The notes: a model not told the origin generated them from the letters alone. A stretch of 11,127 bases of DNA from a virus (IMGVR_UViG_2713896903_000008), one strand, 5' to 3'; shown: positions 1 to 9,576, numbered from the stretch's first letter. Program-made: numbers and translations.

Positions 1-513
1 TTCATCAAGAACCAGCAGATCCACTTCGCACAGTTCCCGCAAAAATTTTTCGCCTGACTGCCCGTCATCATAGCTGGCATGCAGGGCACTCATAACATCA
101 GCCACGGTAACCACAATCACTGTCTGACCGTCTTTCAGCAGGCGATTTCCGATAGCCGCCGCTAAATGGTTCTTCCCGGTACCAGGTTTTCCGCTGAACG
201 CAAAATTTGTACACCCGGTCATCAGTTCATCGGCGATGGATTTCGCCTGGCTTAACGCGTATCGCTGGCCGTCGTTCTGCACCTGGTAATTCGCAAACGA
301 GCATTTACGGTGCAACGGCTGGATGCCAGAGCGATTCAGGATTTTTTCCACCCGCAACTGACGATTCAGGCGGTTGATCTCCTCGCAACGTTTCTGGCCT
401 TCAGCAAGTTGCCACTCGCGCCACTCCGCAACCGTTCTGAATGGGGCGGTTACATGTGGTGGGGTCAGTCTGCGGATACGTTCCAGAACGCCTCCTGTCG
501 CAATATTTTTCAT
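1..513 (-). CDS. ydaV: DnaC-family AAA+ replicative-helicase loader (prophage YdaV-like); 5' part only, gene continues past the left window edge
   Basis: Minus-strand ATG at 513 (plus 'cat' 511-513) with GGGGGT Shine-Dalgarno just upstream. The frame stays open to position 1, which is why it is absent from the complete-ORF track. Translation starts MKNIATGGVLERIRRL and contains Walker A GKPGTGKNHLAAAIGN. It lies 6 nt downstream of the ydaU-like stop, as in the lambda O-P / Rac ydaU-ydaV arrangement. Confidence 0.85.
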   Translation of the reverse strand, partial: MKNIATGGVLERIRRLTPPHVTAPFRTVAEWREWQLAEGQKRCEEINRLNRQLRVEKILNRSGIQPLHRKCSFANYQVQNDGQRYALSQAKSIADELMTGCTNFAFSGKPGTGKNHLAAAIGNRLLKDGQTVIVVTVADVMSALHASYDDGQSGEKFLRELCEVDLLVLDE

Positions 514-519
514 GGTTCG

Positions 520-1302
520 TTACCCCCTGAAGCCTGGCGGGATCGCACTGTCCGGCAACGAGACGGTGTTAACCTGCCGAGGCAACGTCTCCGGTCGAAC
601 GCCTTTCGGCGCGAACAAGCCCTGGTATTCGTTGGCGATGCTGTGTCGAATCACCTGCTCAGGGGTAAAACCCTGCTGGCGGAATTTTTCCAGTTCCCGT
701 ATCGCCCCGTTAGCGCCCTGCTCCGTTCGAATCGGTTTTCGCAATGCCTGCCTGAACCGGACCCACTCATGCCAGAGTGTTTCCGGCAACCAATCGGGCA
801 ACTCAATAGCCTCCGGCTCGAATTTTTTAGATGCTCGTTTTTGGCGAGGGGGATTTAGGGGGAGATCAGTATTTATATCTTCCTCTTCCTCTGGTAACGC
901 TTTTTGATCCGTTTGTGTAACGCTGGCAGCGTTACCTTTTCGTTTCAGTTCGCGTATTTTTGTAACCCTCTCGTTTGTAATCGCCCGTTTTTTAGAGCTT
1001 TTTCCGTTATGACGTTCAAAGTTAGGTAGAGAAAGCCCACCGTTATTTTCGACCAGCCATCCAACCTGAATTAACGCATCAGCAAAACCAGCCATAAAAG
1101 TGATGCGATCTATTGCACTTTTTGTAACGCCGCGAGCGTTACACTCTGCGTTACCGTCTATCATTTGTTGATCCGCCCATGCCCAGAAGCGAATGACTTT
1201 CCCTAATGCGGCATCTGGATCAATATTCAGAATCTCAGCAAGCCTGAATATTTCCGGCTTATCCGGCGTAATAACCTCGAGCTTTATCCAGTTTGAAGCC
1301 AT
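520..1302 (-). CDS. ydaU: Putative phage replication-initiation protein (YdaU-like, lambda O position), 260 aa
   Basis: Complete 260-aa ORF between ydaT and the DnaC-like loader. ATG at 1302 preceded by GGTGA Shine-Dalgarno. It has an N-terminal globular part, a K/E-rich linker (KALPEEEEDINTD) and a C-terminal part. Assignment is by synteny and general resemblance, not a verified alignment. Confidence 0.7.
   Translation of the reverse strand: MASNWIKLEVITPDKPEIFRLAEILNIDPDAALGKVIRFWAWADQQMIDGNAECNARGVTKSAIDRITFMAGFADALIQVGWLVENNGGLSLPNFERHNGKSSKKRAITNERVTKIRELKRKGNAASVTQTDQKALPEEEEDINTDLPLNPPRQKRASKKFEPEAIELPDWLPETLWHEWVRFRQALRKPIRTEQGANGAIRELEKFRQQGFTPEQVIRHSIANEYQGLFAPKGVRPETLPRQVNTVSLPDSAIPPGFRG
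916..936. repeat. 21-bp dyad-symmetric element copy 1 (perfect core GTAACGCTG-G-CAGCGTTAC at 917-935), inside ydaU
   Basis: Read directly from the sequence; one of three copies of TGTAACGC-N5-GCGTTACA (see finding). Confidence 0.6.
1123..1143. repeat. 21-bp dyad-symmetric element copy 2 (TGTAACGC-cgcga-GCGTTACA), inside ydaU
   Basis: Read directly from the sequence; 8-bp perfect arms with 5-bp spacer. Confidence 0.6.
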
Positions 1303-1314
1303 TTGTTTTCACCT

Positions 1315-1335
1315 TGTAACGCTCGCAGCGTTACA
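1315..1335. promoter_or_regulatory. 21-bp dyad-symmetric element copy 3 (TGTAACGCT-cgc-AGCGTTACA), 13 bp upstream of the ydaU start in the ydaT-ydaU gap
   Basis: Read directly from the sequence; 9-bp perfect arms. On the minus strand it sits immediately downstream of a TTAAAT -10-like hexamer and upstream of the ydaU Shine-Dalgarno. Confidence 0.55.
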
Positions 1336-1379
1336 TTTAACTGATACCGAACAAAACAATCCGGCACGATTAATTTCAA

Positions 1380-1802
1380 TCAATGCACTACGACAGAATC
1401 GCCGGGCGACCCACCACCGCTGAAATGTGCTTTCCGGTAAACGGCCTGGACTGCATCATCATGCGCATCAATTGCCGTACTCAACGCTTCCTGCGCCGCC
1501 AGTAATGCACGGCGTTCCAGGGTATCGAAGATACAGAGTCGGTGACGCAGCTCGCGCGGAAGAATTGCCAGAACCGCAGGGATCAGTTTCTGAATTTTTT
1601 CCCTTTGCGCTTTCGTTTCACCTTTCAACCAACGGTGATAGATATTCTGCTGATTGTTCCAGTCCTTGCCAGGCACCAGGGGCAATTCGCCGCCCCCCTG
1701 GCGCAGATATTCTTCAGTAATTGCGTTAGCGACCCACGCCTGCCCTTTTTCAGATGCCAGGGCCAACAACACTGATTCGATATGCTCATGCCTGATTTTC
1801 AT
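1380..1802 (-). CDS. ydaT: Rac-prophage YdaT-family protein (toxic / CII-position protein), 140 aa
   Basis: 140-aa ORF starting MKIRHEHIESVLLALASEKGQAWVANAITEEYLRQGGGELP, recognised as YdaT. Its ATG overlaps the stop of the upstream Cro-like gene (ATGA overlap at 1799-1802), implying translational coupling. Confidence 0.8.
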   Translation of the reverse strand: MKIRHEHIESVLLALASEKGQAWVANAITEEYLRQGGGELPLVPGKDWNNQQNIYHRWLKGETKAQREKIQKLIPAVLAILPRELRHRLCIFDTLERRALLAAQEALSTAIDAHDDAVQAVYRKAHFSGGGSPGDSVVVH

Positions 1803-2044
1803 GAATCAACCGCTCCTATGCTGTTTTCGCTATGCTTACCGTCTGGGGGGAATACATCGTCAAGTCCACAATGAGCACCAAGCCGATTAAGGGTGGAAAC
1901 AATTTTTCTGCACTCTTCTAGCCCAGGAGTACGAAAATTTGCTTCGTAATTTGCCAGTCGGCTTTGTATCCACCCTAACTGAACAGCAAGTTGTCTTTGA
2001 GACAACCCAAGCTGTTTTCGATATGTTGAAATTTTGTTCATCAT
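1799..2044 (-). CDS. Cro-like HTH (XRE-family) regulator, 81 aa (YdaS position)
   Basis: Tandem ATG ATG at 2044/2041 preceded by AGGAGG (plus 'cctcct' 2047-2052). HTH segment LGLSQRQLAVQLGWIQSRLANYEA. Divergent from the repressor gene across a ~95-bp operator region. Start could be 2041. Confidence 0.8.
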   Translation of the reverse strand: MMNKISTYRKQLGLSQRQLAVQLGWIQSRLANYEANFRTPGLEECRKIVSTLNRLGAHCGLDDVFPPDGKHSENSIGAVDS

Positions 2045-2063
2045 TACCTCCTGTTTCTATTAT

Positions 2064-2125
2064 TCACATTTCGTGAGCGAGATCAACTGCAGATACGTGA
2101 GTACCGCCAATTTCACACATCGTGA
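2064..2125. promoter_or_regulatory. Divergent immunity switch: operators TCACA-ttt-CGTGA (2064-2076) and TCACA-cat-CGTGA (2113-2125), a degenerate half-site CGTGAG at 2096-2101 between them, with candidate promoters for both HTH genes
   Basis: Two 13-bp near-palindromes with identical half-sites, centres ~49 bp apart. Minus-strand -35 TTGATC (plus 2081-2086) and -10 AATAAT bracket operator 1. Plus-strand extended -10 TGaTAAAAT (2123-2131) overlaps operator 2. Confidence 0.6.
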
Positions 2126-2138
2126 TAAAATCGGAACT

Positions 2139-2528
2139 ATGAAAACGATTGCAGAACAAATAGGCGAGCGCCTAAAAGCCACTCGGCTAAATCGAGGATT
2201 AAGTATGGGAAACCTGGCAAAACTATGTGGTTGGTCAGGTTCTTCTCGTATTGCTAACTACGAAGCTGGCACCAGGAGTGTGGGGGCTGAGGATGCGATC
2301 ATCCTCGGCCAAGTACTAGGCATTTCCCCCGCAGAATTAATGTTCGGTGAACAGGAAAACACGTACTCATGGTTAAATGATAACCAGAAAAAAATGCTAG
2401 AGCTGTTTAATCAGCTCCCGGGATCAGAACAAGCACGCATGATTGATCTGTTCGAAATCCGTCTTCAAGAGCTTGATGAGTATGTGGAAAAATATCTAAG
2501 AAGCAGGCAACAGAAAAAATCCTCCTAA
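2139..2528 (+). CDS. cI-like HTH (XRE-family) prophage repressor, ~129 aa (RacR position); no S24 peptidase domain recognisable
   Basis: The track ORF starts at a TTG at 2034, but its first 35 codons overlap the Cro-like start and promoter and translate to low-complexity sequence. Start is taken at ATG 2139 (MKTIAEQIGERLKATRLNRGLSMGNLAKLCGWSGSSRIANYEAG). HTH followed by a ~60-aa helical C-terminal region. Followed by an intrinsic terminator. Confidence 0.75.
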   Translation: MKTIAEQIGERLKATRLNRGLSMGNLAKLCGWSGSSRIANYEAGTRSVGAEDAIILGQVLGISPAELMFGEQENTYSWLNDNQKKMLELFNQLPGSEQARMIDLFEIRLQELDEYVEKYLRSRQQKKSS

Positions 2529-2587: not shown

Positions 2588-2640
2588 GTCCATCAAAAAT
2601 CCAAAAACAACATTGCTCACATATTGAGTTGACAAATCAC

Positions 2641-2653
2641 TCACGATATGTGA
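2641..2653. promoter_or_regulatory. Third copy of the immunity operator, inverted (TCACG-ata-TGTGA = reverse complement of TCACA-tat-CGTGA), just downstream of a consensus -35 TTGACA (2629-2634)
   Basis: Read directly from the sequence. Its position relative to TTGACA places the operator over the spacer/-10 of a plus-strand promoter aimed at ydaG-ydaF, i.e. a PL-like position. Confidence 0.5.
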
Positions 2654-9200: not shown

Positions 9201-9395
9201 ATGCGATATGAAAAAGTTAAGCCATGTCCGTTTTGTGGTTGTCCATCTGTAACAGTGAAAGCCATTTCAGGGTGTTACCGGGCAAAATGCAACGGCTGCG
9301 AATCCCGAACTGGCTATGGTGGAAGTGAGAAAGAAGCCCTCGAAAGATGGAATAAACGAACCGCTGAAAATATTAATGGAGGCATCTATGTATAA
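9201..9395 (+). CDS. ralR: RalR, type I toxin (non-specific DNase / restriction alleviation), 64 aa
   Basis: Translation MRYEKVKPCPFCGCPSVTVKAISGCYRAKCNGCESRTGYGGSEKEALERWNKRT, recognised as RalR; Cys-rich. The track ORF start at 9186 would add 5 codons without a Shine-Dalgarno. Confidence 0.8.
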   Translation: MRYEKVKPCPFCGCPSVTVKAISGCYRAKCNGCESRTGYGGSEKEALERWNKRTAENINGGIYV

Positions 9396-9576
9396 AATTA
9401 CCGCCACAATTGAAAAGGAAGGAGGTACTCCTACTAACTGGACAAGATATTCAAAATCTAAACTAACGAAATCAGAATGCGAAAAAATGCTCTCAGGGAA
9501 AAAAGAAGCAGGCGTTTCCAGAGAGCAAAATGTAAAACTGATGAATTTTAATTGCGAGAAACTTCAGTCCTGGTAA
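9388..9576 (+). CDS. ydaC: YdaC-like small protein, 62 aa, function unknown
   Basis: ATG 9388 preceded by GGAGG (9378-9382); translation MYKITATIEKEGGTPTNWTRYSKSKLTKSECEKMLSGKKEAG. Overlaps the ralR 3' end by 8 nt in another frame. Confidence 0.65.
   Translation: MYKITATIEKEGGTPTNWTRYSKSKLTKSECEKMLSGKKEAGVSREQNVKLMNFNCEKLQSW

Follow-up and report, generated by a model that had tools for sequence, protein, structure and literature searches.

Why should an inverted repeat recur three times in and just upstream of a replication initiator gene, and which protein would read it? The question is raised by an 11,127-nucleotide stretch of DNA, here called the window, which represents a Rac-like lambdoid prophage of E. 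coli. A preliminary description had reported three copies of the motif TGTAACGC-N5-GCGTTACA, with centres 207 and 192 bp apart. All three are present where it placed them (sites B, A and U; Table 1), the spacings are correct, and so are the peptides that it read from the two intragenic copies and, in the initiator frame, from site U (CNAASVTR and a stop). With up to three mismatches allowed, exactly three matches to the motif occur in the window, and site B departs from it by a single mismatch, at the outermost base. Dinucleotide-preserving shuffles contain a mean of 0.04 dyads and none of 200 reaches three, so that a chance origin of the dyads was rejected.

Table 1. Genes, dyads and half-sites around the replication initiator gene, in window coordinates (offsets with a sign are counted from the initiator ATG)
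Feature	Position	Strand	Remarks
DnaC/IstB-like helicase loader gene (ydaV)	2..513	-	truncated by window edge; directly downstream of initiator gene
Replication initiator gene	520..1302	-	260 aa
Purine-rich (coding strand), A+T-enriched tract	862..893	-	directly 3' of cluster B; codes acidic linker PEEEEDINTDL
Lone half-site near B	894..900	.	GTAACGC, 23 bp from site B
Site B	916..936	.	TGTAACGCTGGCAGCGTTACC; dyad TGTAACGCT-GGC-AGCGTTACC; codons 123-129 (GNAASVT); +367/+379
Site A	1123..1143	.	TGTAACGCCGCGAGCGTTACA; dyad TGTAACGC-CGCGA-GCGTTACA; codons 54-60 (CNARGVT); +160/+172
Lone half-site near A	1148..1154	.	GCGTTAC on + strand, 12 bp from proximal arm of site A
Site U	1315..1335	.	TGTAACGCTCGCAGCGTTACA; perfect dyad TGTAACGCT-CGC-AGCGTTACA, 9-bp arms; untranslated
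ydaT	1380..1802	-	PF06254, DNA-binding family assignment
Cro-like HTH gene	1799..2044	-	
Divergent repressor gene	from ~2139	+	

The gene that carries the dyads encodes a protein whose entire length (residues 1-260) matches PHROG 2509, 'replication initiation protein', at E = 3.6e-87; the N-terminal domain alone does so at 2.8e-68. This domain is encoded roughly by positions 892-1302 and is followed by an acidic linker. The C-terminal domain (roughly 520-861) is common to K-12 YdaU and O-like proteins, and this half also matches 'O-like' and 'primosomal' PHROGs. Its tail bears a weak resemblance to that of DnaT: NCBIfam returned no initiator family and only a weak DnaT-tail match (E = 0.0048), and a sequence search of the PDB gave marginal DnaT-tail matches only (E 0.05-0.28). 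Pfam contains no family for either half of the initiator, even at E <= 10, and Foldseek found nothing below E = 0.3 in the PDB for the model of the N-domain. The protein may be of the winged-helix type, an assignment for which the predicted structure offers modest grounds. The downstream ORF begins 7 bp past the initiator stop and matches PF01695 (E = 7e-12) as well as NCBIfam PRK12377 and DnaC.

The gene had been described as ydaU. The name fits the C-terminal part, which is common to K-12 YdaU, and does not fit the N-terminus, which is not of the DUF1376 type. An identity with YdaU/DUF1376 was rejected, as Pfam gives no match and K-12 ydaU aligns only with window positions 500-777, that is, with the C-terminal part and ydaV. 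K-12-related alleles align up to position 881, and phages that share the ydaT of the window align only from 1375-1382 rightwards. The segment from about 882 to 1375 is therefore an allele-specific cassette, and it contains the N-domain coding region together with every dyad. Its G+C content is 40-47%, as against 57-65% in the flanks. The full initiator allele is found in 679 of 5,426 complete E. coli genomes, roughly an eighth. Only two records of the plasmid database carry the N-domain, both of them phage-like circles, which makes this database no gauge of autonomous replication.

The preliminary description had taken the 21-bp dyad as the target of a dimeric protein. The dyads themselves stand, but a single 21-bp dimer site does not describe the recognition unit fully. 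This unit is a 7-bp word, GTAACGC, whose copies follow one another at roughly one helical turn, some directly repeated and others inverted. This core half-site occurs nine times in the window (0.73 expected), eight of them inside 894-1334, where they form three clusters of two or three half-sites each, 192-207 bp apart. The parent sites of five of the seven half-site positions lie inside the initiator ORF and are kept family-wide. Two lone half-sites had escaped the first reading of the sequence. Together with site A and read in the coding orientation, the one at 1148-1154 completes an array of the form > > <, and its counterpart at +148 is found in most relatives.

The array architecture was compiled for 111 unique genes of the family. 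Adjacent half-sites are 11-12 bp apart in 301 cases, 22-24 bp in 74, 33-35 bp in 35 and 45 bp in 10, and their orientations are >< (213), << (103), >> (78) and <> (18), where the >< class at 12 bp is inflated because most viral loci were selected by one exact dyad, whereas the additional sites are unbiased. It is this quantised spacing of 11-12 bp in both direct and inverted orientation that identifies the arrayed 7-bp word as the unit. Two intragenic clusters recur, A at about +136 to +196 and B at about +334 to +447, each built of two to seven units, and the copy number differs between relatives. In Klebsiella and Enterobacter homologs, insertions in the protein bring extra NAxSVT copies. 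An upstream site, at about -20 to -68, accompanies 35 of the 111 genes and is missing, for example, from TL-2011b and from the loci L008, L010, L012 and L013. Since the spacings between clusters vary from about 147 to 226 bp, no fixed helical phase between clusters can be claimed.

Two of the three dyads are translated, which raises the question of whether the DNA or the peptide is conserved. The preliminary description had argued for selection at the DNA level, and this is borne out by frozen synonymous positions in the arms, by frame-shifted copies and by the untranslated copy. In a codon alignment of 20 genes, the third codon positions within the arms have an entropy of 0.25 bit (n=12) compared with 1.35 outside (n=138; Mann-Whitney p = 1.2e-7), synonymous sites outside the arms being saturated. 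The residue preceding the asparagine is C, G or S, and its codon remains NGT; the residue preceding the valine is S or G with rare exceptions (R or N), and its codon is therefore NGC in most genes. The lone half-site at 894-900, which reads GCG TTA CCA on the coding strand and supplies the 'ALP' of QKALPEEEE, behaves likewise: the third positions of A135 and L136 do not vary at all (entropy 0.00), CAAAAAGCGTTACCAGAGGAAGAG at this half-site is near-invariant among enterobacterial relatives, and GAGGAAGAG following it is near-invariant as nucleotides in the codon alignment.

The same constraint extends over long evolutionary distances. From E. coli to Pantoea, Erwinia and Xanthomonas, and down to 42% protein identity, the arms are invariant and the spacer is free. 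In loci retrieved through the protein and then checked for dyads relative to the ATG, GTAACGC-N5-GCGTTAC occupies the same three positions in Shigella, Mixta, Erwinia, Yersinia, Serratia, Winslowiella, Rouxiella, Samsonia, Rahnella and Pantoea. Site A is conserved as DNA across genera at +136 to +172, and site B is conserved in the family at +334 to +447. Selection thus acts on the DNA of the sites, and the peptide is not its target. The converse idea, that the protein needs a repeated peptide (x-N-A-x-x-V-T) and the palindromes are a by-product of coding for it, draws on the invariance or near-invariance of N55, A56 and V128 in the protein alignment. Its probability is negligible: the wobble positions are frozen, one copy is untranslated, and in L012 and TL-2011b the word of site B stands in a different reading frame, where it codes for K-V-T-x-x-A-L-Q. 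Sister subfamilies, moreover, repeat other peptides (ASAxxAD, VDGxxST) that match their own dyads. The peptides also fall in predicted loops or disordered segments, site A coding for a loop that is predicted with low confidence in the N-domain (residues 52-57) and site B for part of a predicted disordered segment (residues 96-157).

A role at the RNA level, with the dyads serving as hairpins in the mRNA for processing, stability or translational control, is extremely unlikely. Each dyad could form a stem of 8-9 bp, and the 101-nt leader that contains site U has a predicted folding energy of -27.5 kcal/mol (z = -2.8), with the dyad folding as a hairpin beside the Shine-Dalgarno sequence. The arms, however, are invariant in sequence, and the deviant dyads mostly carry changes in one arm, several of which break pairing; not one compensatory change was found. 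The lone half-sites and direct-repeat arrays, which are unable to pair, are likewise conserved at synonymous positions, and Rfam has no match in 800-1400. The only terminator-like call (positions 917-935) falls on the antisense strand and was rejected, the count of such calls being at chance level.

If the DNA is the target, the protein that reads it should be the one with which the sites travel. The preliminary description had suggested comparing the motif with the initiator allele across related prophages, and the outcome is positive: the sites co-vary with the N-domain of the initiator. Distant homologs of the N-domain have their own dyads at the corresponding places, each of which spells its own twice-repeated peptide. 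In the subfamily of epsilon15, phiPSA1, RPZH6 and Carin1, GTCCGC-N7-GCGGAC occurs at about +65 and +344 (class 2); Raharianne has GTAGACG-N6-CGTCTAC at +153 and +368, and TGTCACA-N7-TGTGACA is found with the homolog of a Vibrio phage. Of 180 unique N-domains, 102 are accompanied solely by class-1 words (GTAACGC) and 69 solely by class-2 words, the other nine falling outside these two groups. Residues specific to the classes map to N-domain positions 8-17, 35-47, 97, 109 and 113.

The relation also holds in unbiased scans that take the dyads as the starting point. Of 120 stretches of IMG/VR viral contigs with an exact class-1 dyad, 101 encode an N-domain homolog, and the class-1 dyads in those loci are found at -32 to -44, +127 to +177 and +334 to +441, with two strays. 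Class-2 dyads lead to a class-2 homolog in 76 of 120 stretches; the 96 dyads in these class-2 loci are confined to +60 to +79 and +320 to +399, and a class-1 dyad is absent from all 76 stretches. In the complete phage genomes tested, the words cluster solely in the initiator gene. In vB_EcoS-666R9, eight of the 12 half-sites fall within 2.3% of the genome and the rest are isolated, at the level expected by chance (4.25), and in epsilon15 two sets of four units stand at an 11-13-bp register. This covariation points to the initiator N-domain as the protein that binds the sites. The earlier view that the binder is a protein other than the immunity repressor is supported.

It is very unlikely that the sites belong to another protein, be it YdaT (CII-like), the Cro-like YdaS, the repressor or a host factor. 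The preliminary description had named YdaT as a candidate and had put forward the Cro-like protein for binding assays; ydaT is located directly upstream of the initiator gene and is assigned to a DNA-binding family, and YdaT of CP-933P binds an inverted repeat. The motif does not follow these genes. vB_Apl-pPE4 and Rac-SA53 carry the ydaT of the window at ~93% nucleotide identity, and pPE4 its cro-like gene as well; both have other initiators, and no half-site occurs in about 4.5 kb of either. Conversely, a search at E <= 1e-3 found no YdaT homolog in seven loci that have retained the dyads. The gene for the DnaC-like YdaV is absent from many dyad-bearing loci. A host factor is disfavoured because phages of Escherichia, Xanthomonas, Pseudomonas and a Pirellulaceae MAG have one word in common, whereas within the same hosts phages with a different N-domain carry a different word.

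What, then, would the initiator do at its sites? On balance, the dyads and half-sites are probably the iterons of an origin from which the prophage replicates, an origin that is embedded in the initiator gene and bound by the N-domain of its product. Several lines of evidence favour this reading. The arrays are confined to a single locus, internal to a gene, variable in number and helically phased, and they change in step with the N-domain of the initiator, with which they share one allele-specific cassette. A helicase-loader gene lies directly downstream, and the protein fits an initiator in its PHROG 2509 match and, weakly, in its DnaT-like tail. A purine-rich, A+T-enriched tract follows cluster B family-wide, and lambdoid phages are known to have origins within the initiator gene (PMC7466680).

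The tract at 862-893 has ~62% A+T and many purines on its coding strand. It is a candidate site of DNA unwinding and coincides with the recombination junction to other initiator alleles. In 108 unique genes, the 40 nt that follow the last half-site of cluster B have a purine content of 64-86% and an A+T content of up to 68%, compared with gene means of 56% and 48%, an enrichment confounded with Glu/Lys codons. There is no strongly A+T-rich region, the lowest G+C content per 40-bp window being 35-43%, and no sharp A+T dip or skew feature occurs in 400-1500.

By analogy with lambda O and its origin, initiation could proceed as follows. Initiator molecules would occupy the mostly convergent arrays (> > < <) of GTAACGC words, 11-12 bp apart, in the intragenic clusters A (about +150) and B (about +370) and, in the prophage of the window, in the third cluster just 5' of the ATG. 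The clusters, ~200 bp apart, would then be gathered into one nucleoprotein complex, and the tract next to cluster B would be destabilised. The C-terminal domain of the initiator may subsequently recruit the DnaC-like YdaV along with the host DnaB. As a secondary, autoregulatory effect, initiator bound at site U and at the intragenic sites might hold back its own expression, either in transcription or in translation. Binding by the N-domain, the firing of an origin and the location of unwinding are all proposed here on the model of lambda.

Several considerations were counted against an origin. The clusters are spaced ~200 bp apart, unlike the single tandem block of characterised lambdoid origins; a strongly A+T-rich region is lacking; the purine richness of the tract possibly reflects just its Glu/Lys codons; and an autoregulatory loop or roadblock, with intragenic and upstream sites for the gene's own product, would look alike. 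The last of these defines the main rival explanation, in which the sites are purely autoregulatory operators through which the initiator represses its own synthesis, by looping or by blocking RNA polymerase, and the origin is elsewhere. The sites do belong to the initiator and cluster only at its own gene, three sites ~200 bp apart look like looping operators, and site U abuts the ribosome-binding site. This site lies in the 77 bp that separate ydaT, with its stop at 1380, from the initiator gene; it is 13 nt 5' of the initiator ATG and adjoins the Shine-Dalgarno sequence AAGGTGA on its 5' side.

Other features make a purely regulatory function unlikely. The universal sites are the two intragenic clusters, and the upstream one is missing in about two-thirds of members; the epsilon15-type gene overlaps the preceding gene and therefore has no spacer. 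The preliminary description had the upstream copy overlapping a likely promoter, a claim left without support because a promoter scan predicted no sigma-70-like site in the ydaT-ydaU spacer and none near site U. Arrays with a variable number of units (two to seven) in helical register, followed by a tract rich in purines and enriched in A+T, are characteristic of origins and not of operators, and the module showed no further repeats that could mark an origin. Among the candidates put forward at the outset, an origin inside the initiator gene is the best-supported reading.

A wider reading of the origin is offered tentatively and with some reserve. The family may represent a widespread and so far unannotated type of origin, in which the binding sites are written into the coding sequence of the initiator's own DNA-binding domain as two arrays ~200 bp apart that bracket the winged-helix core. 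The N-domain and its iterons would form a swappable specificity cassette with at least three co-varying word classes (GTAACGC, GTCCGC, GTAGACG), spread among phages of Gamma- and Betaproteobacteria, perhaps also of Planctomycetes; the sites might serve both initiation and, through looping, autoregulation. As the arrays occupy codons for disordered loops, the protein would on this same reading carry 'passenger' peptides dictated by its own sites.

No paper describing these sites was found in a literature search outside which many subscription papers lie, so that an earlier description is possible; nor did the search find a binding or replication experiment for any family member. In the curated epsilon15 record, the repressor, IHF and RNase III sites are marked, with no origin or initiator sites. 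Current annotations call the genes 'hypothetical' or 'primosomal protein I' and mark no origin. If the origin reading is true, it provides a testable origin and a code for initiator-DNA recognition in a large family of temperate-phage replication modules, carried by Rac-like prophages, the Stx-associated TL-2011b, epsilon15-like Salmonella phages and phages of Xanthomonas, Pseudomonas and Ralstonia. The 7-bp words would be near-diagnostic markers of the module in metagenomes, the two or three co-varying classes a ready-made system for swapping specificity, and the origin could be used for conditional replicons or for reading the coverage of prophage induction. The gene would also be a clean natural case of overlapping codes, a protein sequence constrained by the putative binding sites of that same protein.

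A known counterpart by position is K-12 Rac, for which an active origin (oriJ) has been reported (PMC3945230). oriJ belongs to the same type of prophage and the same place in the replication module, but K-12 ydaU has a different N-terminal allele (DUF1376), and K-12 Rac has no GTAACGC half-site. K-12 ydaU contains a 12-nt repeat of its own, TTGAACATCTGC, five times inside the gene, and the initiator gene of pPE4 has its own repeats inside as well. From these two cases, the pattern of own repeats in the own gene appears to be general for this slot of the module.

A similar arrangement is known outside the lambdoid phages. In SPP1 (G38P and oriL) and in lactococcal phages, the initiator binds repeats in its own coding sequence, and a loader or helicase gene follows downstream. 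These replisome organisers thus share with the window both the repeats within the gene and the downstream partner. The only link in sequence is a marginal match of the initiator to phrog_4880 (E = 0.059), Pfam giving no match to Phage_rep_org_N/DUF4373. Iteron plasmids, with winged-helix Rep proteins such as RepA, pi and TrfA, resemble the window in the possible winged-helix fold of its initiator, in the arrays of short repeats in helical register and in a possible double use of inverted repeats for origin and autoregulation. Unlike in the window, plasmid iterons are direct repeats, 17-22 bp long and placed outside the rep gene, and inverted half-repeats act as operators, and Pfam detects no sequence-family match between the initiator and their Reps. 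The YdaT operators of CP-933P resemble the dyads as an inverted-repeat target in a Rac-like early operon; their sequence is different, and the motif of the window does not follow ydaT.

A functional parallel is lambda. An origin inside the initiator gene O is established for lambda and the Stx phages; the lambda origin consists of dyad-symmetric repeats bound by the N-terminal part of the initiator, an A+T-rich tract adjoins the repeats in the region coding for the interdomain linker, and the C-terminal part of O partners a helicase loader encoded directly downstream (PMC7466680). The window shares with lambda, and also with the Stx phages and P22 gene 18, the sites inside the initiator gene, their dyad symmetry and the downstream loader. 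In hybrid-O genetics, the N-domain of lambda O and its sites are exchanged as one specificity unit. The differences are equally distinct. The initiator is not homologous to lambda O by sequence models and has no Phage_rep_O (PF04492) match. The lambda iteron spans 18-19 bp, compared with a 7-bp word at an 11-12-bp register; four to six iterons form one tandem block in lambda, compared with two or three clusters ~200 bp apart; and the A+T-rich tract of lambda is matched by a weak one. Unlike in lambda, one cluster lies within the coding sequence for a loop of the DNA-binding domain and one upstream of the gene. By analogy, the module of the window would be functionally like lambda O and its origin, while not belonging to that family.

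The initiator cassette has mosaic junctions, marked by the ends of alignments to related sequences. For K-12-type alleles, alignment is confined to sequence left of window position 777 or 881; for phages carrying the window's ydaT, it is confined to sequence right of 1375-1382. The G+C content is 40-47% within the cassette versus 57-65% outside it.

Features of the window and of related loci
Feature	Sequence	Coordinates	Strand	Remarks
Mosaic junctions of initiator cassette	window	~777-881 and ~1375-1382		alignment limits
TCACA-N3-CGTGA-type immunity operators	window	2064-2130 and 2620-2650		visible in sequence
RalA sRNA	window	9394-9572	(-)	Rfam RF02694
C5-cytosine DNA methyltransferase gene, epsilon15 locus	L025	842-2011		overlaps initiator gene start
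C5-cytosine DNA methyltransferase gene, Vibrio phage 1.211.A locus	L026	1004-2008		overlaps initiator gene start
K-12 Rac ydaU	L152	2521-3378		alternative initiator allele, same module slot
vB_Apl-pPE4 initiator	L153	149-1273		alternative initiator allele, same module slot

Elsewhere in the window, the immunity operators named in the preliminary description can be seen in the interval separating the cro-like gene from the repressor gene, and they recur downstream of the latter. A promoter scan of window 500-2200 returned a single promoter-like match, at 2086-2059 (-). The RalA sRNA, which is the antitoxin in the RalR/RalA system of Rac, is matched with 199 bits (gathering score 170).

The acidic linker that follows the intragenic half-site group around +370 (cluster B; positions counted from the initiator ATG) appears to be an insertion hotspot. 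Directly after this linker, the close initiator relatives P0043, P0064 and P0073 (376-aa or 338-aa variants) carry an insertion of ~115 aa, for which Pfam gave no match, while the N-part of another variant, P0110, is fused to DUF1627. On the 3′ side of the lone half-site, the number of GAGGAA units ranges from two to four among near-identical relatives (window 862-893 and homologous positions in loci L002-L137), thereby changing the length of the encoded Glu run.

Homologs of the N-terminal domain are also found on contigs of Planctomycetes and Verrucomicrobia metagenome-assembled genomes (MAGs), reflecting either contamination or a genuinely wide host range. Perfect GTAACGC dyads occur at +136 and +357 in a Pirellulaceae MAG locus (L017). 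Among the Pirellula/Verrucomicrobia MAG loci L019-L021, the first bears two copies of the variant GTGACGC-N5-GCGTAAC; no clear dyad was seen in L020 and L021. A phage-like extrachromosomal record, the 41,205-bp circular "plasmid" of Pusillimonas sp. T7-7 (NC_015459.1; MOB-suite type rep_cluster_1580), encodes a member of the window's initiator family together with a DnaC-like gene, and this circular record hints that the initiator module is able to sustain an episome.

In epsilon15-type and Vibrio members, the start of the initiator gene is overlapped by a C5-cytosine DNA methyltransferase gene. The class-2 word of the epsilon15 type, GTCCGC, contains CpG-type cytosines.

Alternative initiator alleles of this module slot possess intragenic repeats of their own. 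The K-12 ydaU gene harbors five copies of TTGAACATCTGC, two of them 12 bp apart, and the pPE4 initiator gene has TTAGCCTTATCCTTA repeats at 12-bp spacing, with inverted copies ~250 bp away. These intragenic repeats may mark oriJ, the origin of the K-12 Rac prophage, and its analogues.
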